Source of the DNA: Candidatus Woesebacteria bacterium
Lineage (GTDB): Bacteria; Patescibacteriota; Saccharimonadia; Saccharimonadales; EFPC-124
Reading direction: 5' to 3'
Length of the DNA: 64,000 nt
NCBI GenBank assembly: GCA_050115675.1
Contig: JASFQB010000003.1
Location: forward strand, 34,673 to 98,672
Shown here: positions 3,843-58,166 of the stretch, one piece after another
Position numbering within the stretch: position 1 is the first letter of the stretch
Layout of the letters: each line of letters opens with the position of its first letter
Program-made: the position numbers and the translations under genes
The notes under the pieces: model-generated
Told to the model about the DNA's origin: nothing
The model's database searches: none
Seen by the model: only the letters and a program-made list of their open reading frames with translations

Positions 3843-4694
3843 CTACGCGGCTAGTACAGCCGACCTAGACACAAAATTAGCCTTACGGGCGTCTTTTGTT
3901 GCTCTTGTCAATTTTTTTAGGCCTGCGCTTGTAAAATTATGAACACCATGCGGATTGAGCGGATCCCTTCTGTAGGTTACTACTCCTGTAGCATCAACGA
4001 CGTAATGACCATGCCCAATACCACTAGGCTTATCCTTTCCTCCAAAGTAGATATTAATAGTTCCGTCTGATTGAGCGGACATCCAGGTATTGTCTATATA
4101 TTGCTCTGGCACGCCAGCATATCTGGCGATAAAACGTCTGTCATTTTGCTTTCGCCTAGCCTCTTCTTTAAGCTGCTTGATGCGCGCTACGACTGCAGAT
4201 CTAGCAAGCTCAAAATCTGCAGAAGCTCTATCAAACAAAGCGCGCACTGCATCATGTTCAAATTTTGCCTGCTCGTATCTTGATCTTACCTCAGTATAAA
4301 TACGCATATTATCGCGAAAAACTCGCTTTGCATGTGCATACTGCACCGCTGGCTCCTCTGCAAGTTCGTCGATATCACGTAGTCTTGCACGAACCAGCTC
4401 AACACTCCAATATGCAGCATAAGTATCACTTACATTACTCGTTAACTGGTTGAGTTGCATATTAAGCACATCAGTCTGAAGTAGATTATCACTGCGCATC
4501 TTCTTGTAGTTACTGCACATCCGTCGTTGCAACGCATATGCATTTTGGCGATCATGATGTGCCCGAGATAGCTCGACGCTACACTGTTGATACAGACGCC
4601 AGGCAGCCTCTAGATCGCTTCGAGCCTTTTGCTTTCGCTGATGTGCTACATCTCGAGCAGATCGTAGATAATCCAATTCTACATCTCGTACCAC
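3843..4694 (-). CDS. Hypothetical coiled-coil protein with Gly/His-rich C-terminal module (GC-richer orphan)
   Basis: 283-aa ORF with GTG start at 4694 behind AAGGTGG. About 200 aa of Arg/Glu/Gln/Ala-rich helical sequence, then GTINIYFGGKDKPSGIGHGHYVVDATGVVTYRRDPLNPHG. No family recognised. Confidence 0.65.
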   Translation of the reverse strand: MVRDVELDYLRSARDVAHQRKQKARSDLEAAWRLYQQCSVELSRAHHDRQNAYALQRRMCSNYKKMRSDNLLQTDVLNMQLNQLTSNVSDTYAAYWSVELVRARLRDIDELAEEPAVQYAHAKRVFRDNMRIYTEVRSRYEQAKFEHDAVRALFDRASADFELARSAVVARIKQLKEEARRKQNDRRFIARYAGVPEQYIDNTWMSAQSDGTINIYFGGKDKPSGIGHGHYVVDATGVVTYRRDPLNPHGVHNFTSAGLKKLTRATKDARKANFVSRSAVLAA

Positions 4695-4989
4695 TTAACT
4701 CACCACCTTGGTGTAGATGTTCGCGCATCTGTTGATGCGTAGTGCATTTATAGCATAGTTTAGTATATTTTGGCAAATTCTACCCTTCACGCAAGCAACT
4801 TCATATTATATTTTGACTCGTAGCAAACCAACCACAACCACCCTTGTCTGCAAACTAAATTTGACCGATAAAGATGGCTTAAAGCGCAAGCCGGGATCTA
4901 TTTTCAAATTGAAGAAGTTGCAGGTTTACAACGAAAAACAAGCAAAAGATTCAAAGCTCATTATTGAACGTCTGGCAGAAAATTAGCAA

Positions 4990-5024
4990 AAAGAAACCCA
5001 CAAATGTTGGGGTTTCTTTTTTAT
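4990..5024. terminator. Bidirectional rho-independent terminator downstream of tRNA-Asn
   Basis: AAAGAAACCC (4990..4999) pairs with GGGTTTCTTT (5010..5019). T-run follows on the plus strand, and TTTTTGCTAATTTT follows on the minus strand. Confidence 0.65.
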
Positions 5025-5032
5025 TATAATTT

Positions 5033-5107
5033 TGGCTCCGGGGAGAGGGTTCGAACCTCCGGCCTAGTGGTTAACAGCCACCCGCTCTACCGCTGAGCTA
5101 CCCCGGA
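5033..5107 (-). tRNA. tRNA-Asn (anticodon GTT), CCA encoded
   Basis: Revcomp reads TCCGGGGTAGCTCAGCGGTAGAGCGGGTGGCTGTTAACCACTAGGCCGGAGGTTCGAACCCTCTCCCCGGAGCCA. It has a 7-bp acceptor stem, anticodon loop CTGTTAA and T-arm GGTTCGAACC. Confidence 0.95.
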
Positions 5108-5166
5108 ATACGATGGTTATTATAACTGTAAAATTACTTGCGGTCAATCTGGTTTTAATAAAAAAG

Positions 5167-5613
5167 CTACTTTAACGCAATAAGTCTTAGTTTAAACTCT
5201 TTTGCCACATCCTCAAAACCCAATACCTGCAGAGCACCAACTAAAATATAAAGTTGGTCTAAATCATCTGTGGTAATTGTTTTTTTAGACTCAACTTTTT
5301 TTAAACGCTGATCTATGCAATCTGTTAACCATTTTTCATGCTGAGCTGACATTTTTGTTTGCAGCTCTAATTTAACAGGAATATTAGAAGAAATATCCTT
5401 AACTACTTCTAGCGATCTTGCCGATTTATCGCGCTTGCGCAAGTGTCCTTTTGCAATAAGGTTGTCAATATGAGTTGCAACTGTAGAAACAGATTTATAG
5501 TTTAAAGACCTCATTATCTCGCGGTAACTGGGACCGTACCCATGACCGCAGATAAATCCATCTATAAAACTTAGTAACTCGCGCTGTTTTTTTGTTGGCC
5601 TTACTATACCCAT
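5167..5613 (-). CDS. LexA-type winged-helix DNA-binding domain protein lacking the S24 peptidase domain
   Basis: 148 aa. N-terminus PTKKQRELLSFIDGFICGHGYGPSYREIMRSLNYKSVSTVATHIDNLIAKGHLRK matches the LexA N-terminal domain. The C-terminal 70 aa are helical, with no Ala-Gly/Ser-Lys autoprotease motifs. Confidence 0.75.
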   Translation of the reverse strand: MGIVRPTKKQRELLSFIDGFICGHGYGPSYREIMRSLNYKSVSTVATHIDNLIAKGHLRKRDKSARSLEVVKDISSNIPVKLELQTKMSAQHEKWLTDCIDQRLKKVESKKTITTDDLDQLYILVGALQVLGFEDVAKEFKLRLIALK

Positions 5614-5636
5614 AGGTATGTATTATAACGCCAAGA

Positions 5637-5735
5637 TTATTCTTCTACTAAATTTTCTTCACTAATTTTACTTATGTCGTTAATTCGCTTCTCTACGTAG
5701 TATTGAAAGTTTAGGATTCTTGATTCTAGGCTCAT
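5637..5735 (-). CDS. Candidate 32-aa ORF upstream of the LexA-DBD gene (tentative)
   Basis: ATG 5735..5733 behind GAAGGAAAAAC. Translation MSLESRILNFQYYVEKRINDISKISEENLVEE. Ends 24 nt before the next gene. Confidence 0.2.
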   Translation of the reverse strand: MSLESRILNFQYYVEKRINDISKISEENLVEE

Positions 5736-5976
5736 TTTTGTTTTTCCTTCTTTTTTGTTTTTTTGATTTTGTTATTTCTTAATAACTTATTTTTAGCATA
5801 AGCGTTAAATAAAGTCAATACTTTTAACGAAATTAGTTAAATAAATCAGCTCTTTGTATACAACGTTTATGAAACTTGGCAATTATAAAACCAAGCCGTC
5901 CAATGATTTTGACAACACGTGCCGAACACGAGCATCTGTACGGCGGAAAATCATACTTGTATGTCAGGTAAGGCCC

Positions 5977-6003
5977 GGCCGGCTATGCAATATATAGCCG
6001 GCC
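5977..6003 (-). terminator. Perfect 10-bp hairpin downstream of gtrA-like gene
   Basis: GGCCGGCTAT (5977..5986), loop GCAATAT, ATAGCCGGCC (5994..6003). No clear U-tract on the minus strand. Confidence 0.4.
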
Positions 6004-6029
6004 ATAATTTTCATTCACATTATCCTAAT

Positions 6030-6497
6030 TTACATGCCAAATAGCTTTTTTTGCACCTGCCGCGGCCCTTTAAATACCCACAGCCTGTTAGCCGCGTAGT
6101 TCCAAAAGGTCATAAAAAACCAAACCACAAACTTACCAAGTAGCGGAGTTAGCCCTAACCAATTCTCCATCGCCCAAAGCATTATGTATGTAATTATCAA
6201 GTTAACTACCAATATTGTGGCGTAGCGCCAAACACTAGTAAACATACGCAGACCCTTGGCCTTGTCTTTGTAAACCCAAAATCTACTTAACAAATAATTA
6301 ACTATTAGACCAACAATGTATGCCGCAATCGTTGCAATAAGCAATCCCGAATTTGCGACCCAAAATAACATAAAAAAGGTAAAGTAATCTGCTGCAGATG
6401 TAGTCATTCCGGTCACAGAATATCTTACCACTACCCAAATCTCGCCCGACCTATATAATCTTATTACTTGAGGTGTTTTGTAATACGGTTGAATCAT
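6030..6497 (-). CDS. GtrA-family membrane protein
   Basis: 155 aa, four TM helices. RYSVTGMTTSAADYFTFFMLF... and C-terminal NRLWVF are typical of GtrA-like proteins. Confidence 0.85.
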   Translation of the reverse strand: MIQPYYKTPQVIRLYRSGEIWVVVRYSVTGMTTSAADYFTFFMLFWVANSGLLIATIAAYIVGLIVNYLLSRFWVYKDKAKGLRMFTSVWRYATILVVNLIITYIMLWAMENWLGLTPLLGKFVVWFFMTFWNYAANRLWVFKGPRQVQKKLFGM

Positions 6498-6498
6498 G

Positions 6499-7830: not shown

Positions 7831-7911
7831 TAATTTAATGGTACAATTATATCAAGTAATTGCATACCCATTATCTAAAAATACCGGGTAACTTAAGCAA
7901 CAAGGAAACAT

Positions 7912-17810: not shown

Positions 17811-18974
17811 CTAAAAAAGTTTAATGTATTTGTCTGCAATGTCGTTCCAGTTATAGCTTTGTAATATTTTTTTACGAGCTTGTTCGCCCATTTGCTTGGT
17901 TTTTTTAGGATTATCAACCAGCAGTTGCATTTTTTGAGCTATTTGATCAATGTTGTCTACGTCTGTCAAATAACCATCCTTGCCATCATCTATTAAATCA
18001 ATCATGCCCGAAGCCTTGCTGGTTAATATTGCCTTACCGCTTGCCATGGCCTCTAAAATTGCGATTGGCATGCCCTCGTACGACGAAAGCGTGCAAAACA
18101 CATCACAAACTCTGAGGTAATTTACTACCTCTGTATTTGGAACTTTGCCAACAAAAATTACATGCTTTTTTAAGCCTAAATCATCAATTAGTTTTAAAAT
18201 GTCCGCCTCGTAATCTCGGCCACCACCCACCAGAACAAGAACAACATTTGAGTTGATCTTTACAACTTTTTGCAGCGCAAACAACAGGTTAAACACGCGT
18301 TTGCGAGCCCTGAACACACCCACATATAGCAGCGCTGTCTTGCCCGCTAGCTGGTCTAAAAATTTTTGGTCTAGCCTAGGTTTGCCTGGTGTAAAATTAC
18401 CTGGGTTAACTCCGTTGGCAATAATTTTTATGTTTTTTGATGAAGTCATATTGTAGGTGCGCATAAATTCTTTTTTGTTTTCGCTGCTCACTACAGTTAC
18501 TTCGTCTGCACAAACGTATCCAATCCAGCCCAAAAAGACGTGAACAGGCGAAAAAACCCATTTTTCTATATGCTCTTTGCGCGCTGGCTTAAATTCTTTG
18601 CCTTTAACTTTTACCGTTTTTATATGGGCAAATTCCGAAAAATATGACACCTGAAAAGAGTTAATAATTTTAGGAAAGCGCTCATTAAACAGCTTGGCCA
18701 ACAAAAACAAGGTCGTAGATGATTGATGCAGGTTTATAACATCAATTTTTTGCTGTTTTATAATTTTTAGCGCACGTAAGTTATTTAAAAATGCGCCTTT
18801 TATTAGGCTTTTTGAGCTTCTAATGACCTTGGGATCATCTTGCGCCTGACCCGTTGTTAACACCCAAACCTCGTGACCTTTTGCTTGGTAGGATTCTTTT
18901 AGGTTTTTTGCAATTTCGCCTACTCCACCAATTTTATCTGGCGGGTAGTAATCTGTTAAAATTAGAATTTTCAC
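17811..18974 (-). CDS. Glycosyltransferase family 4
   Basis: 387 aa. PPDKIGGVGEIA N-terminal motif and SSYEGMPIAILEAMASGKAIL. GTG start in a GTGA overlap. Confidence 0.85.
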   Translation of the reverse strand: MKILILTDYYPPDKIGGVGEIAKNLKESYQAKGHEVWVLTTGQAQDDPKVIRSSKSLIKGAFLNNLRALKIIKQQKIDVINLHQSSTTLFLLAKLFNERFPKIINSFQVSYFSEFAHIKTVKVKGKEFKPARKEHIEKWVFSPVHVFLGWIGYVCADEVTVVSSENKKEFMRTYNMTSSKNIKIIANGVNPGNFTPGKPRLDQKFLDQLAGKTALLYVGVFRARKRVFNLLFALQKVVKINSNVVLVLVGGGRDYEADILKLIDDLGLKKHVIFVGKVPNTEVVNYLRVCDVFCTLSSYEGMPIAILEAMASGKAILTSKASGMIDLIDDGKDGYLTDVDNIDQIAQKMQLLVDNPKKTKQMGEQARKKILQSYNWNDIADKYIKLF

Positions 18975-19618
18975 TTTATAACCTTTCCAAAATACACCCT
19001 AACAAATGCATCTGTTTTATCAAACCTGTCTAGTTTTACACTTAGCCAAAGTCCAGGATAAAGCAACGCTCGTACCAGCCAGCCAACTTTAATTTTGTCA
19101 AAAATATGAGTAATTTTAAAAACAAGGTTGGCATTTACAGAAAACCAGCCACCACGAGAGTGAATTTGAACGTTTTTAAAATCTTCAAAAAGTTTTTGTA
19201 GGCCAAATTTTGTAAACCGCGCGTAATCGTGAGGCGCCTCGTGCACGGGATACAAAAATGGCACCGTAAAGTAAATTTTTCCGCCCTTTTTTAAAACTCG
19301 CTTCATCTCTTTTACGGCTTTTTGCGGATTGTAAAAATGTTCTATTACATTGTTGGCCAAAATTATGTCAAAGCTAGAATCTTTAAAAGGCAAAGTGTGG
19401 GCGTCTGCAATAATATCTGCGCCAGAATCTGGATTTATGTCTATGGTTGTGTATTTTTGCGAGTTTTTTAATTTTTTTTCGTCAAACTTTTTAGATTTTT
19501 TAAATGATCCAACAGAACTGCCAATGTCTAAAATGCTTTTATTACTAAAATCAATCGCAAAAAAATCATAATAATTCTGTTTTGAATAACAAGGGGCTGT
19601 GCTTAAAAATTTTGACAT
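18971..19618 (-). CDS. Class I SAM-dependent methyltransferase
   Basis: 215 aa. ILDIGSSVGS (motif I), DIILANNVIEHF, MKRVLKKGGKIYFTVP. Confidence 0.85.
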   Translation of the reverse strand: MSKFLSTAPCYSKQNYYDFFAIDFSNKSILDIGSSVGSFKKSKKFDEKKLKNSQKYTTIDINPDSGADIIADAHTLPFKDSSFDIILANNVIEHFYNPQKAVKEMKRVLKKGGKIYFTVPFLYPVHEAPHDYARFTKFGLQKLFEDFKNVQIHSRGGWFSVNANLVFKITHIFDKIKVGWLVRALLYPGLWLSVKLDRFDKTDAFVRVYFGKVIK

Positions 19619-19620
19619 GC

Positions 19621-31991: not shown

Positions 31992-32372
31992 CTAAAACTT
32001 TAGGACTTGCCTATTGCCGCTGCCAATCTGCACGCCGCTTACACCGTCCATCGTTACGTTGCATGTGCGAGTTGCTACCTCCATTCTAGCGCTACCGGGC
32101 GAACCAACCACTGTTACCTCATCGGCCCTTTTAACAATAGCAACTCGCGAGCCCGCAGGTGGCTCCGCGCTAAGCGCAGCCGGGTCGATATATCCTTCGT
32201 CTTCAGGATTCAGAAAAACAATCCTTGCTCCTTCTCGGGCAATAATCCTGCCTGTTCGCAGGTTGACCATTGAAGCACCATCAAAGTGAATGCGTGGCCA
32301 TTCGACCTCAATAAACGCAACGCTACTACCGATAACGATTTTGTCGTTAACCACGATGTAGTGCGCAAACAT
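31992..32372 (-). CDS. Hypothetical 126-aa protein (GC-richer orphan)
   Basis: ORF with stop-poor antisense strand (two antisense ORFs of 88-91 aa in the track). Beta-rich sequence, C-terminus CNVTMDGVSGVQIGSGNRQVLKF. Confidence 0.6.
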   Translation of the reverse strand: MFAHYIVVNDKIVIGSSVAFIEVEWPRIHFDGASMVNLRTGRIIAREGARIVFLNPEDEGYIDPAALSAEPPAGSRVAIVKRADEVTVVGSPGSARMEVATRTCNVTMDGVSGVQIGSGNRQVLKF

Positions 32373-43200: not shown

Positions 43201-45351
43201 CTACACAGGCAGCCTAAGCGTTGCCTTTACGTTGCCAAGGATTGCCCTTGTGTTCATGACCCAGTTTTCCAGATCGCACACGTCCGACGGCAGTTCTTCA
43301 TCCGCAACATCGATAGCACAAAGGGCTTCCCAGTGCGCGTCCGTCAGTTGCAGTTTGTAGACTCTCAGCAACTCGTTGGCTTCGTCGCGCAAATCTAGCG
43401 CATGCTCGCGAAGCAACTCCGGGTCAGCCTCTCTGCTAATTTCAACACCAGCAAATCTGCTGACAATCTCGTACCCCTCTCTAGTCTTGACTGCGTAGCG
43501 CATGGCCACGTCATTCGGAATAACCGTACCTTCAATTGTGGCACGCTCATAACCAGCCCTGCTCGTCCAGTGGCGAATGGTACCCATAACCGAGTATCCT
43601 AGGGTAACGCCAAACTGGTCGTTGCCAAACAGGGTTCGGGTTGGCCTGTCGACATATTCCAGCGACTGCACCATTGCAAGCAGCTCGACAAAGCCCAAGT
43701 GCAACAGTTCACCACAGTCAACAACCATGATGTCCTGCAGCTTTGGCAGTTGCTCTCCAACCGCCCGAAGGACGGTCATAAAGCGCATCACCACATGTCG
43801 GATCTCTTTGCCAGAGTACCCCCACTGTCTGCACCATGAATCGTAGTCGTTGCCGCCAATGCGATAGGCGGTTCCAGCATCGTTCGGCTTTCCGAACTGC
43901 CGCAGAGCTTCCGCGACAATGTTGTATCCAGTAAGATGGTCCGACCCCTGAACTACATTGGGATCGGCATACTTCTGCAGCTTCTTGCCGGTAATGCCAT
44001 ACAGCTCACCGATGCTCGCAACAATACAAACTACAAACAGCAGGTCAACAACATCAAGGCCTTTAGCGGTAGCGATGATCTCGCCCCACCTACAACCAAC
44101 CGGCAAACGCTCAACGCGCTCACCAAGATCGGTCAGACCAAGCCGCCCACCAACACTACTAACCAATCCGCGAGTAATGAGCCTTGTAAGAACATCCTGG
44201 TAAGCCTCTTGATCAATTTTACCAATCAACTCCAACTCTCTGGCGTCAACGCCAATCTTGGCCGTCGACAGAGCCAAAAGCTCCAGGTTACCGCTCAAAA
44301 CAAACTCGGGATCAACTGTAGAGAGGCTGTGCAAATCCAAATAACAGTCGGTCACAATGTGGACCTCGCCGTCGGTCGCACGCCCGTCTACGCGCCCAGC
44401 CATCTGCAAAATGGTGTTGTTATCAAGCGCGCTGCGCCTGAGCTGACGAACGCCACCGCTAATAAACTCTTTGTACTGAGCGTCAACGATGATTACGGTA
44501 TCAAGTCCTCCAATGTTAAGACTAGAGGCCCCGGCGGCCGTCATAAAAAGCACAAACGGACGAGGAGCGTTGCCTTCGATGTAACTGCGCAGCTTCTCTG
44601 CAGACTCGCCACCGTGGTAAAAACCCGCGCTCACACCGTGCTGTCCGTCGCACCAAGTGGCAAGCCTTTCGGCCTCCTCTCTGGTCGGAACAAAAACAGC
44701 AACTCCTCGCTGCCGAGCAGCGATCTCTGGCAGGTGCTCGTCCAGAACCCTTTCTACATCCGAAAAACGGTGGCAAAGCACCTTGGCCCGGCGAGTAGGA
44801 TCGTAAGCCGAACAACTGATAACCTGACGAGCTTCAAGATACCGACTATACGAGTCCGGATTAACCGTTGCCGACATCCAAACAAACGTGCAGCCAGCCC
44901 GCTTAAGCAAAGCCATGGCAAGCTCAAGATGCTCGGAAGTCTGGTGGATCTCATCGATTACCACCAAATCCTCCACACCAATACTGCCAGACTTTGCCCA
45001 CTTTACTGCAACACCAGGAGTAATAACGATCACGTTGTGTCGATCCACCTTGGTATTGCGGTGCTCTTGCGTCACGATACCAATCGAGAGGCTCCGCCCC
45101 AGCACATCCAGGCAAATCTGCCTAATTGCAGCGGATTTACCAGTGCCGGCGCCAGCCACAACACCAAAACCGCCGTCAGACAGCAGGCCAGTAGCGCAGC
45201 TCAGATCAAACCCGCATTCACGCTGAATTAGCGTTTCAGGCAAAGAATCGTTTGCAATCAAAGCCGACAGGTTCACACATGTACTACGAGTAGGAGCAAT
45301 AACCACAACTCGCTTAAAAACCAGCATGTCACACCCTTCAATAGGTGCCAT
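43201..45351 (-). CDS. DEAH/RHA-family (HrpA/HrpB-like) SF2 helicase
   Basis: 716 aa. GAGTGKS, DEIH, SAT, TAAGASSLNIGGLD, QMAGRVDGR in order. Downstream region resembles HA2/ratchet (LTDLGERVERLP). Start could instead be the second ATG (45327), which has GAAGGG upstream. Confidence 0.85.
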   Translation of the reverse strand: MAPIEGCDMLVFKRVVVIAPTRSTCVNLSALIANDSLPETLIQRECGFDLSCATGLLSDGGFGVVAGAGTGKSAAIRQICLDVLGRSLSIGIVTQEHRNTKVDRHNVIVITPGVAVKWAKSGSIGVEDLVVIDEIHQTSEHLELAMALLKRAGCTFVWMSATVNPDSYSRYLEARQVISCSAYDPTRRAKVLCHRFSDVERVLDEHLPEIAARQRGVAVFVPTREEAERLATWCDGQHGVSAGFYHGGESAEKLRSYIEGNAPRPFVLFMTAAGASSLNIGGLDTVIIVDAQYKEFISGGVRQLRRSALDNNTILQMAGRVDGRATDGEVHIVTDCYLDLHSLSTVDPEFVLSGNLELLALSTAKIGVDARELELIGKIDQEAYQDVLTRLITRGLVSSVGGRLGLTDLGERVERLPVGCRWGEIIATAKGLDVVDLLFVVCIVASIGELYGITGKKLQKYADPNVVQGSDHLTGYNIVAEALRQFGKPNDAGTAYRIGGNDYDSWCRQWGYSGKEIRHVVMRFMTVLRAVGEQLPKLQDIMVVDCGELLHLGFVELLAMVQSLEYVDRPTRTLFGNDQFGVTLGYSVMGTIRHWTSRAGYERATIEGTVIPNDVAMRYAVKTREGYEIVSRFAGVEISREADPELLREHALDLRDEANELLRVYKLQLTDAHWEALCAIDVADEELPSDVCDLENWVMNTRAILGNVKATLRLPV

Positions 45352-46894: not shown

Positions 46895-47374
46895 CTACTC
46901 TTCTGACTCTTTTGTAATTATAAGATGGCGATTTTTGCCTTCGCCCTCTGAATGGCTTTGTAGGCGGCCAAACTCAGACACAACACCGTGTGCAACACGC
47001 CTGTCAGCTGGGTTCATTGGCCTAAGGTCCATTTGTTGGCCTGTTTTCATAACTTCTTCGCACCACTGTCGTACTTGCTCGGCAAGACGCTCTGCACGAT
47101 GCTGTTTATAGCTTGCAACATCAATATTTACACGATTTAACTGAGCACCAGCGTTTTTAAGCGCCATAGAAAGCAAGTATTGCAACGATCGCAAGGTTTC
47201 ACCTCGTTGCCCAATCAAAAACCCATTAAGATGAGTAGAAGGTATAGACAACTCAATAACTTCGTCTTCACATCTGACCGTAATATCTGTATTTAGACCA
47301 AAAAACGACAACAAATCCTCTAAATATCGTTTTGCAAAGTCGATAGATTGATCGCGGTTTAGTGTTTGGTCCAT
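46895..47374 (-). CDS. jag: Jag/KhpB-type RNA-binding protein (KH + R3H domains)
   Basis: 159 aa. LIGQRGETLRSLQYL (KH GxxG) and NPADRRVAHGVVSEF (R3H). Located directly downstream of yidC. Confidence 0.88.
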   Translation of the reverse strand: MDQTLNRDQSIDFAKRYLEDLLSFFGLNTDITVRCEDEVIELSIPSTHLNGFLIGQRGETLRSLQYLLSMALKNAGAQLNRVNIDVASYKQHRAERLAEQVRQWCEEVMKTGQQMDLRPMNPADRRVAHGVVSEFGRLQSHSEGEGKNRHLIITKESEE

Positions 47375-47375: not shown

Positions 47376-48296
47376 CTATTTTTTCCTTCGCTTCTTAACT
47401 GTCTTGTCCTCAGTTTTTGTAACTACTGCCTCTTTAGCATTTTTAAGCTTTTTTTGCGCAGATTTATCAGCAGATTCTATCATTTCTTCGCTATCTTCGC
47501 GCAAAACATAACCCTGTTGGGCAATTGCTACCAAGCTGGTCACTAACAGATACAAAACCAGTGCACCCGCAAAGTAAATAGATATTACAAAAGTAAGCGC
47601 AGGAAACACATAAACCATGCGATTGCTCATTAATGCACTAATTTCGCTTTGATCAACTGTTTTGCCCGCTGCTTGGTCTTTTAGCATATCGCGTAGTTTG
47701 CGCTTCTCTTTAACTTTAGGCAAAAGCTGTTTAGATTGAACAAATTGCAACATTGCTGCAATTACAGCCATTACAAATAGCGGAAAGTAAAATCCGTCGT
47801 TTGAAACAGCCTGTTTTGTAAGATCAACCATACCAAACATCATGTAATTAAACTTGCTTGGGTCGGCAATTATATCTGTTATGTACGGTAAATTGTGAAT
47901 AAATCCGTAAGCATAGTGAGCAATATTTGTAGCGTGGTCGGTTGTAACTAAGCGAACAACGGCAAACAGCGCAATCAAAACTGGCAATTGAACAATAAGA
48001 AGCCCCATTGATCCAAAAGGATTTACGCCGCGCTCTTTATAAAGCTCCATCATCATTTGGGCTTCTAGCTGCTTGTTGCCCTTGGTTTTTTGCTTGATCT
48101 TTTGCAACTCTGGCTGAAGTTTTTGCATAACTTTTGTTTGATGCAACTGCTTTTTAACCAGAGGCCACATTAACACTCTAATAAGAATGGTAAATAATAT
48201 TAAAGCTAAGCCAAAATCGTGCCCAGGAATAATGCCATAAATAAACAATAAAATATTAAAAATTGGTTGAACTAAGATAATGTCAAATAAACTCAT
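47376..48296 (-). CDS. yidC: Membrane protein insertase YidC
   Basis: 306 aa. LTILIRVLMWPL, QPELQKIKQK, YKERGVNPFGS, basic C-terminal tail. Confidence 0.92.
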   Translation of the reverse strand: MSLFDIILVQPIFNILLFIYGIIPGHDFGLALILFTILIRVLMWPLVKKQLHQTKVMQKLQPELQKIKQKTKGNKQLEAQMMMELYKERGVNPFGSMGLLIVQLPVLIALFAVVRLVTTDHATNIAHYAYGFIHNLPYITDIIADPSKFNYMMFGMVDLTKQAVSNDGFYFPLFVMAVIAAMLQFVQSKQLLPKVKEKRKLRDMLKDQAAGKTVDQSEISALMSNRMVYVFPALTFVISIYFAGALVLYLLVTSLVAIAQQGYVLREDSEEMIESADKSAQKKLKNAKEAVVTKTEDKTVKKRRKK

Positions 48297-48433
48297 AACT
48301 TATTATATAATATCACAAATTGTGATTTTTGCAGATAATGCAGCCTGTTTTTTGCAAAAATGTTGCATTATTAACTAAAATATTGTAGAGTATACGAAGG
48401 CTATTCGCCTTTTACCCTTTTGGAGGGATTAAC

Positions 48434-48616
48434 TTGCCTAGCAAGCTTTACAGCACCCGCCGCAACGGCGATGTTGTTACTGTCGAAATTCCCGAACTCG
48501 GAACAATTGACCTTCGAGGAGGAGAACGATACGACTGGAACGTGCGAGTCTTTCTTACCCCCGACTACATTGGTGATCTGAACGACATCGATCCGGTTCC
48601 CGCAGGGACGCCCTGA
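48434..48616 (+). CDS. 60-aa ORF in the same frame as the downstream CPBP gene, ended by TGA
   Basis: TTG start behind strong SD GGAGGG (48422..48427). Translation MPSKLYSTRRNGDVVTVEIPELGTIDLRGGERYDWNVRVFLTPDYIGDLNDIDPVPAGTP. May be the N-terminus of a disrupted longer gene. Confidence 0.4.
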   Translation: MPSKLYSTRRNGDVVTVEIPELGTIDLRGGERYDWNVRVFLTPDYIGDLNDIDPVPAGTP

Positions 48617-49510
48617 TTGCAGTGCACGGAAGTATCTGCGATCAACAACGGTAAACTGCGTCGGCTGTGCGAGGTACTCAAACACTTTGACATTGACAAA
48701 GATGGCACACCAGATTGCGACATGATTTTGGCCGTCATCGAGGGTTTGCTGACCCAGAGCACCGAGGAGCCCGATCCGCTTACCCGACCCACAGGTAAAT
48801 TTTTTACCAGGCTTATCATGGCCGTAATGCCACCTCAGCCGGACCGCCACATTGTTTACGGGTTTGGCGATATCAAGCGGCGCTTTAGGTGGTATCACTA
48901 TCCCGTTGCACTGGCGACGATGCTGCTGATTATGGCAATGATTCAGGTTCAGGTTCATCTTGTGCCCTGGACGAAATACTCCGCCATTTCTGGCGCACAT
49001 GCAATTGCCGAAAAGACCGGCCTTGCGGGCTGGAAGCTGACGATGATGTTTTTTGTGACAGTGCTTGTGCTTGCCATAGCTCTTAAAAGCAGGCTGGGCA
49101 AGCATTCGCAGTTCACGCACGGAATTCTCAGCAAATCGGCAGTGTACGAGGAACAGGCGTTTCGAGAGGGAGCCGAGAACTGGAGTTTTACTCAGCGGTT
49201 TGTTAGCTGTGTGGTGTTTGGCGCATTGCATATGATCAACATGATCTACAGTATCGCCATGATTCTGCCACTGGCTTTTGGTGGTGCCGTGTTTATGGTT
49301 GAATACCTGCGCGTTTACCGCCGTACCCGCTCGCGCCGAGCTGCGGTGTTGGCGTCTTCAATTGTGCATCGTGTTTACAATCGCCTTGCACTGTGGGTGT
49401 TTGTGATTTGGATGATCCTTCTGTCTGGCGTTGACGTTACCAGTCTTGCTACATCGTTTGCAATCGGCCTGATTTCGCTGGGCTTTTCAGAAAAACTTGT
49501 GTCCAAGTAA
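48617..49510 (+). CDS. CPBP-family (CAAX protease / Abi) intramembrane glutamic endopeptidase; start uncertain
   Basis: Motifs EEQAFR (EExxxR), FGALH (FxxxH) and HRVYN (HxxxN) within a multi-TM C-terminal half. The frame is continuous with 48434..48613 apart from one TGA. Confidence 0.75.
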   Translation: MQCTEVSAINNGKLRRLCEVLKHFDIDKDGTPDCDMILAVIEGLLTQSTEEPDPLTRPTGKFFTRLIMAVMPPQPDRHIVYGFGDIKRRFRWYHYPVALATMLLIMAMIQVQVHLVPWTKYSAISGAHAIAEKTGLAGWKLTMMFFVTVLVLAIALKSRLGKHSQFTHGILSKSAVYEEQAFREGAENWSFTQRFVSCVVFGALHMINMIYSIAMILPLAFGGAVFMVEYLRVYRRTRSRRAAVLASSIVHRVYNRLALWVFVIWMILLSGVDVTSLATSFAIGLISLGFSEKLVSK

Positions 49511-49523
49511 CACGCAAGTAGCC

Positions 49524-49547
49524 GCCCGGAGGGTAAAACCTCCGGGC
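49524..49547. terminator. GC hairpin between convergent CPBP and rnpA genes
   Basis: GCCCGGAGG / CCTCCGGGC with loop GTAAAA. A/T-rich flanks on both sides. Confidence 0.6.
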
Positions 49548-49559
49548 ATCACTTTAAAA

Positions 49560-49913
49560 TTATTTTTCTTGCCATAAATCTGCTTTTACAAACGCATCTA
49601 CAACTAACTCTTTTAGATCGTCGTAAGGCATGTCGTAAAAACGCGGTTCAAAAATATTTATAGCAATATCTGTTGGTGATTTTATGTGTTGCCAGTTTGT
49701 GCGCAGCGCTTCGTAAACTCTGCGACGAATACGGTTTCGCTTGGGGGCTGATTTGTATAATTTTCTGGTGACAATAATGGCACATCTTGAATCCTTGCGC
49801 TTTGAATTGTGTACATACCTAATAGACAACGCTCGGTTGCGCACTACTTTGCCATTTTTATACAGGTAACGCAAGCTACCATGGCCATGAAATCTATATT
49901 TATACTGAAGCAT
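49560..49913 (-). CDS. rnpA: Ribonuclease P protein component
   Basis: 117 aa, basic. KSAPKRNRIRRRVYEALR (RNR motif). Immediately downstream of rpmH. Confidence 0.9.
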   Translation of the reverse strand: MLQYKYRFHGHGSLRYLYKNGKVVRNRALSIRYVHNSKRKDSRCAIIVTRKLYKSAPKRNRIRRRVYEALRTNWQHIKSPTDIAINIFEPRFYDMPYDDLKELVVDAFVKADLWQEK

Positions 49914-50220: not shown

Positions 50221-50313
50221 TTTTCCACAATTTTACAGGGGTGACCCCAAACTGTGTATAACTCCCCCATCAATTGACAAATAAAACATTGTCTTTTTTA
50301 CGGTTGTGGAAAA
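50221..50313. promoter_or_regulatory. Pair of inverted DnaA-box-like 9-mers upstream of dnaA
   Basis: TTTTCCACA at 50221..50229 (+) and at 50305..50313 (-). Each is one mismatch from TTATCCACA. Confidence 0.5.
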
Positions 50314-50375
50314 GTCCCCTCATCACTTATAGTAAAGGTAGCTTGAAAGTAAGTGGAGAGGTAGAAACAAGGAGT

Positions 50376-51746
50376 ATGAACAACGCGCTGTGGCAGACCG
50401 TGCTTGGAGAGATAGAACTAACAGTGTCGCGCGCCAGCTTTATGACTTGGTTTAAGAATACCGAGTTAATAGAGCAAAACGCCGAATACGCAACTATCTC
50501 TGTGCCAAATATTTTTGCAAAACAACAGCTTGAGGTTAAGTTTTCTAATCAAATATTAGAAACTCTCAACAAAAATGGAGCAAGTGTATCAAAAGTTAGA
50601 TACACTATTCAGTCTGCAACCAAAAAGAAGGGCGCCGAAGCAAAAAACTCAAACGTTGCAACCGTGGGTCAAGTTGCAACTAAAATTGTAAATACCTCTA
50701 ATTCGGGCAACTCAGCCAGCACTAAACAAGACACTAGCCTTAATCCGCGTTACACATTTGAAACATTTATCGTTGGGTCAAGCAATGAGCTTGCCTACAC
50801 TGCTTGCCAGGCTGTTGCAAATAGCCCAGGCACAAAATATAATCCACTATTTTTGTACGGCGGGGTTGGACTTGGTAAAACTCATCTTATACAGGCAGTC
50901 GGTAACGGAATAGCTGCCAACGACCCAAGCGCACGTATTTTGTATATTTCTTCAGAAACATTTGTAAGCGACTTTTTAGATAGCATTAGATTCAAAAAGA
51001 ATGGTTTTTCTGACAGATACCGCAACGTTGACGTTTTAATTATTGACGACATGCAATTTATTGCCGGAAAAGAAAAAACACAAGAAGAATTTTTTCACAC
51101 ATTTAACGCACTACACCAGGCAAACAAGCAAATTATAATTAGCTCGGACCGCCCGCCAAAATCTATTCCTACACTTACCGATCGCTTGCGAAGCCGTTTT
51201 GAATGGGGCATGACAATAGACATACAAATGCCAGACTTTGAAACACGTTGCGCCATTTTGCAAACCAAAGCAAATTGCGCAGGCTTTACGCTAGATAAAG
51301 AAACCGTAGACTATTTGGCAACACACATTCAAACCAACATTCGCGAGCTAGAAGGCGCGCTTAACCAGCTACTAGCATTTTGCGAAATGCGAGGAATCGA
51401 CCCAGACCTACAAACAGCAGCTGGGCTTTTGGGCAACGTGCGAACCACTCGCCCGCACCACCTAACCTGCAAGCAAGTCATAGACAAAACCGCCAAGCAC
51501 TTTCAAGTGGACGCTGGCGACATTTTAAGCGCAAAACGCGATAAACACATTGTTGTGCCGCGCCAAATCGCCATGTATTTACTGCGAAGCGAATTGCATT
51601 TGAGCTTTCCTAAAATTGCCAAAGAATTGGGGCGAAAAGACCACACTACTGCGATTCACTCTGTAGAAAAAATCGAAAAAGCGTTAAAGCTCGACTACAT
51701 CATTCGCCAACAAGTTACCGAAATACGAGACAAGCTGTATGTATAA
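50376..51746 (+). CDS. dnaA: Chromosomal replication initiator protein DnaA
   Basis: Start moved to ATG 50376 (MNNALWQTVLGEIE...). Walker A GGVGLGKTHL, Walker B LIIDDMQF, C-terminal DNA-binding HTTAIHSVEKI. Confidence 0.95.
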   Translation: MNNALWQTVLGEIELTVSRASFMTWFKNTELIEQNAEYATISVPNIFAKQQLEVKFSNQILETLNKNGASVSKVRYTIQSATKKKGAEAKNSNVATVGQVATKIVNTSNSGNSASTKQDTSLNPRYTFETFIVGSSNELAYTACQAVANSPGTKYNPLFLYGGVGLGKTHLIQAVGNGIAANDPSARILYISSETFVSDFLDSIRFKKNGFSDRYRNVDVLIIDDMQFIAGKEKTQEEFFHTFNALHQANKQIIISSDRPPKSIPTLTDRLRSRFEWGMTIDIQMPDFETRCAILQTKANCAGFTLDKETVDYLATHIQTNIRELEGALNQLLAFCEMRGIDPDLQTAAGLLGNVRTTRPHHLTCKQVIDKTAKHFQVDAGDILSAKRDKHIVVPRQIAMYLLRSELHLSFPKIAKELGRKDHTTAIHSVEKIEKALKLDYIIRQQVTEIRDKLYV

Positions 51747-52010: not shown

Positions 52011-52020
52011 AGGAGGTTTT

Positions 52021-53115: not shown

Positions 53116-53120
53116 ATAAA

Positions 53121-54478: not shown

Positions 54479-54640
54479 AACTCCCCTTTTTGTTATCTGT
54501 CAGATATTTTTGCAAATATTCCCCAAGAGGTCAAGTTTACAAACATTAGCGACAAAAAAAACTTTACATGTTTGCCAATGTGTATTAACATTCTTGTTAA
54601 GTCGCAAAAACGTGGCTTACCTTAACAATTAGGAGGCTAA

Positions 54641-55078
54641 ATGCACAAGCTAAAGTTTGCAGTTCTGGCTGCGGTGCTGCTAATTGTGGTTGTTGTTGCA
54701 GCTTGGTTGTTTGTTGGGTCGTCTAAAAACGATTCTGCAAATAACTCTGCACAGGTGGCAGCGCCAAACGCAAGTACTACATCAATGTCGGCAGACGACG
54801 AGCGCAGGTTTGAGCTGGCGCTTAACAGCGCTGACATTAACCAACAAGCGTCCGTCATGACCGCCGAAATGGGCGCAGCTTACAAATCTATGGGTCAATC
54901 TATGTTGCCAGATGGTAGCCAGGTTGATATTTTGCCCGAGACCATGACCGTAAGCGATAATGTAGCCAGTGTAGAGGCAACTCTTACGTTTTCTGGTCAA
55001 ACAAGCGAGTATTGGCTTGTTTTGGCGCGCACTGATGCAAGCAGTCCGTGGCTACTACTTACTACCGAGGGGAAGTGA
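54641..55078 (+). CDS. N-terminally anchored small extracytoplasmic protein
   Basis: 145 aa behind AGGAGG. TM helix FAVLAAVLLIVVVVAAWLFV and a roughly 90-aa soluble domain. TGA stop. Confidence 0.65.
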   Translation: MHKLKFAVLAAVLLIVVVVAAWLFVGSSKNDSANNSAQVAAPNASTTSMSADDERRFELALNSADINQQASVMTAEMGAAYKSMGQSMLPDGSQVDILPETMTVSDNVASVEATLTFSGQTSEYWLVLARTDASSPWLLLTTEGK

Positions 55079-55084
55079 TGCAAA

Positions 55085-56431
55085 GTGAGGCTTTACAGAG
55101 GGGCTATTGCTGCCTTTGCTGTTTTGTCTATGATGCTCTCTTTTTTGCTGGTGGCAACGCCGGCCAAAGCCGAAACCCCAGGTTGCATGCCTGATATTGG
55201 CAAAAAATTGCCTGTGCTGTTTGTGCACGGGCTAAATGCCAAAGGTTCAGACTGGGATGGTTTTAGAAGTTACCTAAGTGGCGAAAACGCAAATGTTGCA
55301 ACCGAGGCCTTTGACTACAGCGCCAACAACACTAAATGGGTTACCGATCCAAATATTGGCGCTGCATTGGCCGACAAGATTGCCTGCATGGCTACTTCTT
55401 CGCGCGAGCAAGGTGGCCAAGGCAAGGTTGTTGTAGTTGCGCACTCTATGGGCGGTCTGGCGACGCGTCAGTCCATCTCGGAGCGATCTGACATCCTGAA
55501 TGATCTTGGCATAGTAATTACTATTGCCACGCCAAATACCGGGTCAGACACGGGTGAATTTTTGGGCGATAGTCTGATAAAACTATGTAAAAAAGCTCTT
55601 GGCTTTGGATCAAGTCTGATTTGCGATAGCCTGACCAGCCGCGCCAACGATGCTGGCTTTTCTGCCTACCCTGCACTTATGACTGGCTCGCCAGAAATTA
55701 GTGCCTTGGCTAATTGGCCAAACGATTTGTCTGTGTACGCTATTGCTGGCGATATTAGGCCACACTACGACTTCTTTTTTGCAGAGTTTGATGGGTCTGC
55801 GAGTGGTACTGATACTTTGGTTACGGTGTCATCTGCGCTAAACGGTGCAAGTGAGAATACGCTCAGGTACGAATGCAGTGGCGACACGCCTATCGTGGTA
55901 CTTGGTTGGACTAAGGCGGATTGCGAACACAGCACTCTAGATAATAGTCAAGCCGTGCAGCAAAAAGTTGCCGATGTGGTTGGCAAATATATTGAGAAGA
56001 ACAAGCCGAAGCCGAGTGCTACGGGTACAGAAGTTGCTTTTAAGAATATGAAGCTTACTTTGCCAGATAATTGGAAGTATCAGTACGAAGATTGGAACAA
56101 TTCCCTGTCTTTGTATAGGGTCTCTGGCTGTTCTGCTCCAAATTGCCCCACTGTCCATGTTCGTGATATCGAAGGCATTGATTGGACGATTGGCGACGCT
56201 GGGGAGTGCAGTACTGGAGAGGGTTCCATCGGAAGCCTGGAGTCCCAGGGCACTTTTACGATGGGGTCAAAGAAAGCTAACTATTACACCATCCAGGTGT
56301 GTCCTAATACGCATGACGAGGACTATCATTTTTGGGAATTGCCAAAATCGGCAATTCTAATTGATACATGTGGGACGATTGTCCTGCCAGAGCTGCGTCA
56401 AATTTTAGCCAACGCCAAGTTTACTGATTAG
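55085..56431 (+). CDS. Secreted alpha/beta-hydrolase (lipase/esterase, PGAP1-/class-2-lipase-like) with extra C-terminal domain
   Basis: 448 aa, GTG start. Signal peptide ...LLVATPAKA, PVLFVHGL oxyanion-type motif, nucleophile elbow AHSMGG (GxSxG). Confidence 0.75.
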   Translation: MRLYRGAIAAFAVLSMMLSFLLVATPAKAETPGCMPDIGKKLPVLFVHGLNAKGSDWDGFRSYLSGENANVATEAFDYSANNTKWVTDPNIGAALADKIACMATSSREQGGQGKVVVVAHSMGGLATRQSISERSDILNDLGIVITIATPNTGSDTGEFLGDSLIKLCKKALGFGSSLICDSLTSRANDAGFSAYPALMTGSPEISALANWPNDLSVYAIAGDIRPHYDFFFAEFDGSASGTDTLVTVSSALNGASENTLRYECSGDTPIVVLGWTKADCEHSTLDNSQAVQQKVADVVGKYIEKNKPKPSATGTEVAFKNMKLTLPDNWKYQYEDWNNSLSLYRVSGCSAPNCPTVHVRDIEGIDWTIGDAGECSTGEGSIGSLESQGTFTMGSKKANYYTIQVCPNTHDEDYHFWELPKSAILIDTCGTIVLPELRQILANAKFTD

Positions 56432-56440
56432 TTTTGGTAG

Positions 56441-56472
56441 CCCTCGCCGATATGTTGTTGGCGAGGGTTTTT
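56441..56472 (+). terminator. Rho-independent terminator
   Basis: CCCTCGCC (56441..56448) / GGCGAGGG (56460..56467) followed by TTTTT. Confidence 0.8.
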
Positions 56473-56561
56473 AAATTCCATCCAAAAAGCATCTTGCCAC
56501 GCTGGCCAATTAATGCTATAAATTAAACATCCTGTTCATCCCTCTTTTTGTGAGGTGTTAA

Positions 56562-58166
56562 ATGAGGAAGTTCTTTGCATTGCGGCGCGCGGTTGCGCTT
56601 GGTTTGTCGCTTACTTTGCTGACGGCCGAGGGCGGCTGTGGTGGCGAATATTCTGGTGTTGCGCCGTCTAAAACCTTTTCGGCTACAGTTAAGTCGGGCA
56701 AGGCCGGCACTTACAAGCTTGGCGATATTACGGTTACTGTACCAGAGGGTGCGGTGCCAAAAGACACCAAGCTAACGGCCACCTCCCCTGTCAATATTAA
56801 CAGTGTAAACGCACCGCTTGGCGCCACGTCTGTAAAGTTTGACTTGTCGTTTGATGGTGGGCTTGAGCCTTCAAAGCCGCTAAAAGTTGCTATTCCGCTT
56901 AAGGGCGACTATTTGCCCGATGGCGTTCAGGTCGAGCGAGCTTTTTTGTACTCGCCTGACGACGCTGGCAACCAATGGCTTGTTCCATCTGCGGTGACCG
57001 ATGGCGTGCTTTATGCGCAGCTTAATCACCTTTCGCCAAAGATTGTTAGCTACCTAGACGACGCAAGTTTGCTGTCGCTGATTGGTGGGATTCCAGATCA
57101 AGTCGATTTTACGTCGGACTGCAAAACATCTGTCGAAACTCCATCTGGCAAGGTTAAGCTTACTGGCAAAAACTGGTCTAATGGTGATGAAGGCAGTCCA
57201 ATTAATGCCTGTTTAACAATAGAAGGCAGTGACGTCAAGCTAACTATTAAGAACCGGGTTAGTTACATTTTGTCTGTGGCTTCTACAAATGTTTCTGTAG
57301 ATACTGCAACCAGTTCAACCGAGGACGGCATTGTTGTTGAGCTTGCTAAAAGAATGTATCCTGCTCGAAACACCAAAGCCTTTTTGGGTCGAGACAGCGA
57401 GCTTGAAGTAGCTCTTTCTACCGACAACCTGCCGACCACGCTTGATCTAATTGCTGATACTAACACGTATTTTGCCGAAATTAGTTGGGCGTCGCTAAAG
57501 TTTTTACTTGGTGTGTTTGCTGGTGCTAATGAAAGCGATAAGATTGTCGAACTGGCAGACAAAGTCATAAGTGCACCAGAGGTTGTTGACTGCTTGCGCA
57601 CTGCTGTTGAAGCTGATGGTGATGATGTGTCTGCACTTGACAAGTTTAACTCTGTAACTGGCAAGTGCACAGAGCTAATCGTAACAAAAGCAAGCGCCAT
57701 TGCTACAAGTGGTGTTGCTGAGTGGGGGCAATTTTGGAATCGGATTTTTGCTATTGGCAGTGGAATTTCGACAGCGGTAAACACTGTTGTGACGGCTTAT
57801 TATGGTATTAAGCTGCAGTTAAACAATACTATGCGAATTACCGTGTCTTTTGCTTCTGGATCTTCTGGTAGTTCGCCGACGTGTTTGACGGTTGCGCAAG
57901 CTGAGAGAATGCTGAATGATGCACTGGCGGAGCACGCAAGTCTAACTGGCGATGAAGCAGTAGCCTCAGATGTTGTTAGTGTAAAGTGCTTTGATGGATG
58001 GGCGGTGTCTCACGATAAATACGGTGCAGTTGCTGTTTTTAAGCTAGATTTTGCTACATCGAAATGGTCATATGTTAGCACGCTGGGTGCAGGTGGCGGG
58101 GATATCTATTGTGAAACTGGAGTTCCCTCCGACGTTCTCGAAGAAGCTGACTATAGCTGTTCGTAG
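56562..58166 (+). CDS. Secreted/lipoprotein-like hypothetical protein
   Basis: 534 aa behind GAGGTG. N-terminal signal with Cys at LLTAEGGC (non-canonical lipobox). No catalytic motif recognised. Confidence 0.65.
   Translation: MRKFFALRRAVALGLSLTLLTAEGGCGGEYSGVAPSKTFSATVKSGKAGTYKLGDITVTVPEGAVPKDTKLTATSPVNINSVNAPLGATSVKFDLSFDGGLEPSKPLKVAIPLKGDYLPDGVQVERAFLYSPDDAGNQWLVPSAVTDGVLYAQLNHLSPKIVSYLDDASLLSLIGGIPDQVDFTSDCKTSVETPSGKVKLTGKNWSNGDEGSPINACLTIEGSDVKLTIKNRVSYILSVASTNVSVDTATSSTEDGIVVELAKRMYPARNTKAFLGRDSELEVALSTDNLPTTLDLIADTNTYFAEISWASLKFLLGVFAGANESDKIVELADKVISAPEVVDCLRTAVEADGDDVSALDKFNSVTGKCTELIVTKASAIATSGVAEWGQFWNRIFAIGSGISTAVNTVVTAYYGIKLQLNNTMRITVSFASGSSGSSPTCLTVAQAERMLNDALAEHASLTGDEAVASDVVSVKCFDGWAVSHDKYGAVAVFKLDFATSKWSYVSTLGAGGGDIYCETGVPSDVLEEADYSCS

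Follow-up and report, generated by a model that had tools for sequence, protein, structure and literature searches.

The DNA analysed here is a window of 64 kb (the whole stretch under study) from a 180,506-bp contig of a metagenome-assembled genome (MAG) with PVI21_ locus tags. The window contains a replication-origin region, with the minimum of the cumulative G+C (GC) skew at about 52 kb, and, to the left of that region, a glycan-synthesis cluster of about 40 kb. Among these genes the original prediction had singled out four single genes and a trio as GC-richer units with long antisense open reading frames (ORFs). We found that the GC-rich pattern is real and unusual, for four of these units and not for five. 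The flagged genes are listed below, with the GC content, the GC content of third codon positions (GC3) and the codon-usage z score of each.

3843-4694, minus strand: Arg/Ala-rich, coiled-coil-like hypothetical protein, excluded as an outlier; GC 0.454 (z +2.1), GC3 0.356 (z -0.2), codon-usage z -3.6
31992-32372, minus strand: small gene for a 126-aa near-orphan protein, at the convergent end of two glycan operons; GC 0.512 (z +4.2), GC3 0.496 (z +3.5), codon-usage z -1.8
43201-45351, minus strand: DExH-box helicase, a 716-aa ORF with a likely start at 45327 that gives 708 aa; GC 0.532 (z +4.9), GC3 0.559 (z +5.2), codon-usage z -9.8
48434-49510, plus strand: inserted gene of a rare family of ~360-aa proteins, 359 codons when read through an in-frame stop; GC 0.517 (z +4.4), GC3 0.579 (z +5.7), codon-usage z -7.0
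54641-55078, plus strand: trio gene 1, whose 145-aa product has a signal anchor; GC 0.495, GC3 0.479, codon-usage z -0.9
55085-56431, plus strand: trio gene 2, a secreted alpha/beta-hydrolase of 448 aa, a DUF676/PGAP1-like esterase or lipase; GC 0.483, GC3 0.479, codon-usage z -5.0
56562-58166, plus strand: trio gene 3, the weakest outlier, whose 534-aa product is putatively a lipoprotein or a surface protein; GC 0.477, GC3 0.424 (z +1.6), codon-usage z -3.7

The z scores compare each gene with the non-focal genes of the window, using a standard deviation based on the median absolute deviation (MAD-sd); these genes have a median GC of 0.398 (MAD-sd 0.027) and a median GC3 of 0.365 (MAD-sd 0.038, maximum 0.436). 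On this scale the helicase and 48434-49510 are strong outliers, 31992-32372 is a clear one and the trio is moderate, with GC z scores of about +3 and GC3 z scores of +1.6 to +3.0, in keeping with the weaker signal that had been predicted for it. The check by GC3, codon usage and tetranucleotides that the original prediction had proposed thus bears out four units as outliers, but the GC3 of 3843-4694 lies within the normal gene spread; the excess of this gene falls in codon position 1 (GC1 = 0.595) and so reflects its amino-acid composition. Tetranucleotide distance, which was computed over 1-kb segments independently of the ORFs, gave z scores of 5.2 for the helicase, 3.7 for 48434-49510 and 2.7 for the trio, while 31992-32372 is below the size that such a scan resolves. 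When a fixed outlier criterion (dGC > 0.08 and dGC3 > 0.10) was applied, it flagged 4 of the 52 ORFs in the window but only 2 of the 884 that lie in the origin loci of Saccharibacteria relatives (52 loci; Fisher p = 1.2e-4); the related loci hold 11 AT-rich outliers versus the 2 GC-rich ones.

The long antisense ORFs are present opposite the helicase (431 aa), 48434-49510 (276 aa), 31992-32372 (88 and 91 aa) and 56562-58166 (173 aa), but 3843-4694 has no antisense ORF of at least 80 aa, and some native genes carry long antisense ORFs as well. The absence of integrases and transposases beside the units was borne out: no mobility gene of these or other kinds turned up in Pfam scans of the 54 gene-sized window ORFs and two further small ORFs, PHROG and PADLOC brought up nothing of relevance (the PHROG matches were negligible), and the sole tRNA (Asn-GTT, 5033-5107) adjoins the non-outlier 3843-4694. 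The top tetranucleotide outlier of the whole window (z 6.5), which the original prediction did not flag, is AT-rich: it spans 18600-20400 in the glycan cluster and takes in two genes, for a methyltransferase (GC 0.343, 18971-19618) and for a GT4 glycosyltransferase (GC 0.380, 19621-20913).

The best 80 YidC loci among GTDB species representatives share a Saccharibacteria-type origin layout, and most of them are labelled Saccharibacteria or Saccharimonadales; the window YidC is at most 64% identical to theirs and the window DnaA 72-74%. From this layout and these matches the source organism can be taken as Saccharibacteria-like, as had been supposed, and the NCBI label of its MAG, 'Candidatus Woesebacteria bacterium', is probably wrong. 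Several third-party-annotation 'SMAG_U' MAGs among the YidC loci likewise bear names (Magnetospirillaceae, Nevskiaceae, Binatia) that are implausible for Saccharibacteria-like origin regions. Three contigs from other samples served for close comparison: the sister contig L083 (12.8 kb), which is ~85% identical to the window at the nucleotide level and 92% in YidC (population sampled in SRR28815410 and SRR28814854); L084, a second contig from another sample that carries the helicase site; and L091, a contig of a more distant relative from a fourth sample (SRR24085896). The GC content is 0.415 in the window, 0.427 in L083 and 0.443 in L091, and 0.47-0.50 in the nearest GTDB relatives, L003-L007. 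Stop codons in the 54 gene-sized window ORFs are TAA in 33, TAG in 19 and TGA in 2, so that TGA is very rare for a GC content of 41%.

The linkage of rnpA and yidC, beside the replication origin, is one of the most conserved in bacteria. In the window it is interrupted by an insert that contains one of the two strongest outliers. The origin region and the features of the insert are as follows.

46895-47374, minus strand: jag/khpB
47376-48296, minus strand: yidC
48331-49559: insert of ~1.2 kb between yidC and rnpA; this site is empty in L083
48352-48381, plus strand: promoter-like TTGCAA-18-TAAAAT from a promoter scan, in which such sites are no commoner than chance
48422-48427, plus strand: Shine-Dalgarno-like GGAGGG, 6 nt 5' of the TTG start, as read from the sequence
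48614-48616, plus strand: in-frame TGA that splits the inserted gene into ORFs of 60 aa and 297 aa, with a TTG directly after it
49524-49547: hairpin rich in GC (CCCGGAGG, loop GTAAAA, CCTCCGGG), located where the 3' ends of the inserted gene and rnpA face each other
49560-49913, minus strand: rnpA
50274-51746: dnaA, followed by dnaN and recF, on the other side of the origin

We found that positions 1-745 of L083 align to 50310-49569 of the window and positions 817-2251 to 48330-46896, such that ~71 bp of L083 are replaced by window positions 48331-49568; the spacing of rnpA and yidC in L083 is 40 bp. The gap between the two genes is likewise at most 171 bp in 73 of 75 related species, which upholds the prediction that a conserved linkage is interrupted here. 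Because the site is empty in L083 and the genes are adjacent in the related species, the insert is a lineage-specific one that postdates the split from L083. In L083 (401-811) rnpA encodes 136 aa, but in the window only 117, and homology between the two stops at the window stop codon; the insertion therefore appears to have cost the window gene the last 19 codons of a longer, L083-type rnpA. Transposon-like ends were considered and rejected, as no terminal direct or inverted repeats were found at 48331-49559. A simple scan did not call the hairpin at 49524-49547 an intrinsic terminator, since no T-run follows it. Two other inserts occur between rnpA and yidC among the relatives, one with an 875-aa secreted protein and a 93-aa ORF (L019, 7061-9957) and one with a 151-aa NUDIX-like protein (L071, 9395-9850). 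The genes of both are native-like or AT-rich, and the notion that this site is a recurrent hot spot for GC-rich inserts was accordingly rejected.

The inserted gene itself had been predicted to be a single-gene unit. Its composition is atypical as expected, but it is not one open frame, owing to the TGA at 48614-48616. This codon aligns to a Tyr/Phe/Leu column with conserved residues on either side, and homologues, 350-383 aa long, extend across the stop and match as much as 95% of the sequence when it is read through. The same TGA is found in an independent Logan assembly, most likely of the same population. Recoding of TGA was rejected as unlikely, since the standard code (table 11) leaves the native genes whole. 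Among further ORF pairs split by a TGA none was credible apart from the in-frame pair 54641/55085, which is out of frame in L091. The alignment thus points to a gene that is now disrupted by a premature TGA.

The family to which this gene belongs is very small, with 31 proteins among 5.8 billion clusters; the 31 include none from cultured organisms, plasmids or phages, and all derive from contigs of uncultured small-genome organisms. Its members begin with a beta-rich domain and end in a membrane domain, and they share a loop that resembles an EF hand (DIDKDGTPDCDM in the window). The family profile matches the EF-hand proteins secretagogin and calbindin (E = 0.004), and an AlphaFold model of one homologue (predicted local distance difference test score 83.6) gave no PDB match in Foldseek. 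The family copies are 38-50% identical to one another and each lies in a different gene context. Among nine family loci the window copy has the lowest GC and the lowest GC3, which, with the premature TGA, fits a decaying and partly ameliorated gene.

Both this EF-hand/CPBP-like family and the helicase family stand out as GC-rich in all the genomes that were examined (13 observations of a locus over the two families, the window being counted for each), and this is the one surprising result of the analysis. In the eight other, independent loci the EF-hand/CPBP-like gene has a GC of 0.58-0.65 and a GC3 of 0.71-0.92, against a GC of 0.41-0.55 for the rest of the locus, and it ranks first or second in GC3 wherever the locus is long enough. 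The fixed criterion given above flagged the focal gene in 8 of 8 homologue loci, in six of them as the sole flagged gene. The GC of this family rises with that of the host (r = 0.81, p = 0.008, n = 9), at an offset of +0.085 to +0.17; the correlation is weaker without the window (r = 0.65, p = 0.08). In each of five genomes, one of them an Uhrbacteria MAG, helicase-family GC3 is 0.09-0.21 above the local median, and it follows the host (r = 0.90, p = 0.04, n = 5); the samples for both families are small. Further strong GC3 outliers, all unannotated ORFs, lie near helicase homologues, at 5246-6142 and 16121-16534 in L085 and at 13829-15313 in L104 (for example, 0.816 versus a median of 0.50). 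GC-rich single genes may thus be more widespread in variable regions of genomes of the Candidate Phyla Radiation (CPR).

The helicase at 43201-45351 lies between two glycosyltransferase genes. An orthologue with 72% amino-acid identity occupies the identical site in L083 and L084; within 10 kb on either side of yidC the gene is absent from all 80 GTDB loci. Between the window and L083 its synonymous divergence (dS) is 1.12, and that of the immediate flanking genes is 0.8-1.36; its ratio of nonsynonymous to synonymous divergence (dN/dS) is 0.17, compared with 0.03-0.09 for the flanks. The shared site and the flank-like dS indicate that the helicase was already in place in the common ancestor with L083, and these values point to a gene that has diverged together with its flanks under purifying selection, functional though less constrained than they are. 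The claim that the helicase interrupts a conserved glycan arrangement could not be demonstrated, since the region varies among relatives. Its role as a member of a defence system was considered and rejected, with only sub-threshold Cas3 and mads8 fragments matched.

The named homologues of the helicase come from Uhrbacteria, Ryanbacteria, 'Patescibacteria group' and Candidatus Saccharimonas, followed by Gemmatimonadota at 39-41% identity; no actinobacterial homologue is among the best 120 matches. In a rough neighbour-joining tree the window helicase clade groups with the Saccharimonas copy; a Parcubacteria-type clade stands apart, and Gemmatimonadota fall outside. The MAG of the Saccharimonas copy, where it sits among core genes (iscS, DUF218, mnmA), is also the source of L003, the nearest GTDB relative. 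The helicase thus nests with sequences of Saccharibacteria and other CPR bacteria, a result that the original prediction had itself named as one that would speak against foreign ancestry, and its cross-phylum origin is not upheld. Two differences from L083 were seen nearby. The sister contig has an extra 247-aa gene without a known domain between glycosyltransferase and helicase (3712-4455), and the ABC-transporter ATPases with a Wzt C-terminal domain (window 39863-41041, L083 8937-10124) are only 61-62% identical while the membrane partner is 93% identical, a divergence that suggests a switch of glycan specificity between the sister lineages.

The trio at 54641-58166 has a different history. 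In L091 the order is recF, a small ORF, the three trio genes and four downstream genes, and the trio shows a similar modest GC elevation. Identities between the window and L091 are 59% for gene 1, 52% for the esterase and 50% for gene 3, and 64-71% for the downstream genes. Genes 1 and 2 are also paired in the MAG contig L092, where they are barely above background, and a 31% homologue of gene 3 lies beside recF in L003. By its synteny in L091 the trio is vertically inherited in this clade, at least since the ancestor shared with L091. Part of its excess falls at codon position 2, with a GC2 of 0.46 as against ~0.35 in typical genes, and so about half of the trio GC excess reflects amino-acid composition. 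The only named homologues of the esterase outside metagenomes are from Actinomycetota (Rathayibacter, Streptomyces, Kitasatospora), at 33-36% identity over ~41% of the length; metagenomic matches are closer, at 40-63%, and the actinobacterial ones at most hint at an old link. Genes 1 and 2 share one reading frame, separated by a TGA and 6 nt, both here and in L092 and not in L091; this in-frame spacing is probably a coincidence.

The small gene 31992-32372 has ~3 true homologues among 1.84 billion representative proteins, of which two are tandem paralogues beside thyX on a short contig with a GC of 0.54. Its C-terminus (SGVQIGSGN, residues 106-120) matches Pfam RHIM with E = 0.0016 and 18.4 bits, below the cutoff of 20, and this RHIM/BASS3-like motif is kept in homologue P0243 and duplicated in P0239. 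The gene with its RHIM-like tail is uncharacterised and is a candidate for follow-up. As for the excluded unit 3843-4694, we found no Pfam, NCBIfam, PHROG or PADLOC match. The tRNA-Asn at 5033-5107 stands between this gene and one for a 148-aa protein (5167-5613) that has only the DNA-binding domain of LexA type; this neighbourhood could be a remnant of an old integration, although no phage or mobility signal was found near the tRNA-Asn and 5167-5613.

The flagged genes had been treated as one class, but their ages differ: one was gained after the sister split, one was present before it, and the trio has descended vertically across a deeper split. We favour, at a probability of roughly 0.55, the reading that the GC-rich units are accessory genes of a Saccharibacteria/CPR gene pool that entered, or stayed, at different times. 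They would be prominent here for two reasons, namely that their families are GC-rich wherever found and that this lineage fell to ~41% GC, with its nearest relatives at 47-50%. The segment 48331-49559 would be a self-contained single-gene cassette (Shine-Dalgarno sequence, 359-codon ORF and hairpin) that was inserted after the sister split and whose gene afterwards gained the premature TGA and was partly ameliorated. The helicase would have resided between glycosyltransferase genes before the window and L083 split, diverging with its neighbours, and the secreted proteins of the trio would have descended vertically; the near-orphan 31992-32372 is assigned no origin. Entry would have needed no dedicated mobility genes and most likely proceeded by DNA uptake followed by illegitimate or homology-facilitated recombination, the presumed donors being not Actinobacteria but GC-richer members of Saccharibacteria or of other CPR groups. 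Saccharibacteria are naturally competent, and the cultivated ones grow on Actinobacteria (PMC10633639), so that DNA uptake is a plausible route. A phage or plasmid origin was rejected: neither the helicase, the inserted-gene family, 3843-4694 nor the esterase has a relative in IMG/VR, searches of 72,556 plasmid and 50,697 phage records gave no match to the helicase or the inserted-gene family, and PHROG gave only the negligible matches noted above.

Several points weigh against this gene-pool reading. The donor and the entry mechanism are inferred rather than observed. The taxonomy of most homologue-bearing contigs was deduced from contig size and gene content with few matches: L094 is the only one whose neighbouring genes match a Saccharibacteria MAG (60% and 37% identity), the MAGs of L102, L103 and L092 belong to accession series that carry a Saccharibacteria label, and one carrier is labelled Verrucomicrobiae, within a MAG series whose labels seem unreliable. 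Ordinary GC-richer CPR donors would leave a GC excess of ~0.1 over those genomes unexplained. The homologue searches rely on shared 5-residue words, and very distant actinobacterial relatives could therefore be missed. In addition, as L083 is only 12.8 kb long, the insertion could be a relocation within the genome and not a transfer.

The main rival holds that the GC excess is intrinsic to these families, which would be long-term residents of Saccharibacteria that have been rearranged and whose third codon positions are kept GC-rich by a gene-specific force, such as GC-biased gene conversion in accessory loci that recombine often or selection on synonymous sites; composition would then be no guide to foreign origin. 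We regard this as possible but doubtful. It would account for the elevation of every examined copy above its host and for the way in which gene GC tracks host GC with a positive offset; it also agrees with the deep divergence of the inserted-gene copies, which is comparable to that of their hosts, with the place of the Candidatus Saccharimonas helicase among core genes, and with the lack of relatives found in cultured organisms, plasmids and phages. However, the dS of the helicase is not below that of its neighbours and gives no sign of synonymous-site constraint, and the two helicase orthologues have a GC3 of 0.56 and 0.49, a difference that ongoing amelioration would be expected to produce. 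Mobility is also a better fit to the extreme rarity and ever-different context of the inserted-gene family, the window copy is demonstrably inserted relative to the sister genome, and the host correlation of this family loses strength once the window is left out.

A tentative claim, which we would not put at even odds, is that at least two accessory Saccharibacteria/CPR families, the DExH helicase clade and the EF-hand/CPBP-like membrane protein, persistently exceed the genomes that carry them, by about +0.1 for GC and by +0.1 to +0.35 for GC3, with an excess that tracks host GC. If this excess is not the result of serial recent transfer, a gene-specific process would keep synonymous sites off the genomic equilibrium in reduced genomes, and a candidate for it is GC-biased gene conversion at loci that are often exchanged through natural competence. 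If so, composition-based detection of transfer would misread such genes systematically, and were the effect genome-wide, it would matter for the evolution of base composition in reduced genomes and for the trust that compositional screens for gene transfer deserve there.

An acquisition from a high-GC actinobacterial host of the epibiont, with amelioration now under way, had been offered as a natural explanation, and we consider it improbable. Several members of the inserted-gene family do reach a GC3 of 0.85-0.92, values that are typical of Actinomycetota. The growth on Actinobacteria and the natural competence cited above would provide the opportunity, the esterase has its only named relatives outside metagenomes in Rathayibacter, Streptomyces and Kitasatospora, and the motif class of the 31992-32372 tail is reported mainly from filamentous Actinobacteria and Cyanobacteria. 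However, the helicase nests in CPR with no actinobacterial homologue in its best 120 matches, the inserted-gene family has no cultured relatives (0 of 31), and neither gene was matched in the plasmid and phage records, many of which are from Actinobacteria. The actinobacterial esterase matches, for their part, are the more distant ones, cover less than half of the protein and concern a gene that is vertically inherited in this clade. For these genes a high GC need not mean a host among Actinobacteria: the strongest outliers lead back to CPR bacteria and their gene pool. That the units are assembly or binning artefacts, foreign reads placed in a Saccharibacteria contig, is scarcely credible even for a MAG with a wrong NCBI phylum label, because native sequence flanks every unit within a single contig, the units covered by an independent Logan assembly (SRR11713588), namely the helicase, insert and trio, recur there at 100% identity, and the helicase occurs at the same site in two other samples and the trio in a fourth.

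Among known proteins, the helicase is distantly HrpA/HrpB-like, to judge by its motifs and profile matches. Like these DEAH/RHA helicases it has a Walker A motif (GAGTGKS), a motif II (DEIH) and a Helicase_C domain (33.5 bits, cutoff 23.5), with a DEAD match of 25.7 bits just below the 26-bit cutoff; HrpA proteins are its best solved relatives in the PDB (E = 4e-5, residues 108-436), and HrpB gives a weak NCBIfam match. It differs from them in falling far under the equivalog cutoffs (TIGR01970, 40.9 bits versus 546), in having no HA2 or OB_NTP_bind Pfam match at E <= 0.01, and in belonging, at 708-716 aa, to a CPR-centred clade. The trio esterase passes the Pfam thresholds for DUF676 (31.3 bits), PGAP1 (27.2 bits) and Abhydrolase_6 and has a signal peptide, as do PGAP1-like/DUF676 esterases; unlike them, it carries a C-terminal extension of ~120-150 aa without a known domain and forms a conserved pair with a small signal-anchored protein.

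The C-terminal membrane domain of the inserted-gene family resembles the CPBP/Rce1-like intramembrane glutamic proteases (PF02517, 'Abi') in having EEQAFR (EExxxR), FGALH (FxxxH) and HRVYN (HxxxN) in the same order, and these three motifs are invariant in family alignments of 15 and 28 sequences. The match to PF02517 is weak, however: it was seen in 9 of 15 members, with a best member at E = 5.6e-4, and stays below the gathering threshold of 22.4 bits, the window copy reaching 14.7 bits (E = 0.039). The family also has an additional N-terminal soluble domain with the EF-hand-like loop, and the window copy is interrupted by a stop. This EF-hand/CPBP-like membrane protein is uncharacterised and is a second candidate for follow-up.

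BASS3 motifs have been described as RHIM-like amyloid signalling motifs at the C-termini of small proteins, mainly of filamentous Actinobacteria and Cyanobacteria (10.1101/2020.01.06.895854). Like these proteins, 31992-32372 consists of a domain of ~100 aa followed by a C-terminal G-V-Q-I-G-S-G-N, and its residues 106-120 match the position range of the published constructs (10.1101/2020.01.06.895854). It is unlike them in that its N-terminal domain, judged by sequence, looks beta-rich and not Bell-like, and in that there is no adjacent NLR-type partner and no NB-ARC or NACHT gene, the neighbours being an epimerase and a DUF2304 protein.

For the units taken together, the closest known system is that of genomic islets. 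In the amelioration model of Lawrence and Ochman, atypical single genes that were acquired horizontally are said to drift toward the composition of their host. The window units resemble such islets in their sharp, gene-sized steps of composition, their atypical codon usage and their patchy presence; for the insert there is also an empty sister site and a copy that looks to be in decay, with its premature stop and the lowest GC3 of the family. The insert is thus a dated example of integrase-free gene gain followed by early decay in an epibiotic CPR bacterium, with an empty-site control in the sister. The comparison of presence and absence across relatives that had been proposed bears out lineage specificity for the insert, which is missing from the homologous site in close relatives, but not for the helicase, which is shared with L083 and L084, or for the trio, which is present in L091. 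The units also lack the integrase, tRNA target and flanking repeats of islets. Foreign DNA in bacteria is usually AT-richer than its host; the window units, in contrast, are GC-richer. Finally, they differ from islets in that the same families are outliers in every host examined, a pattern that one-off acquisition does not predict.

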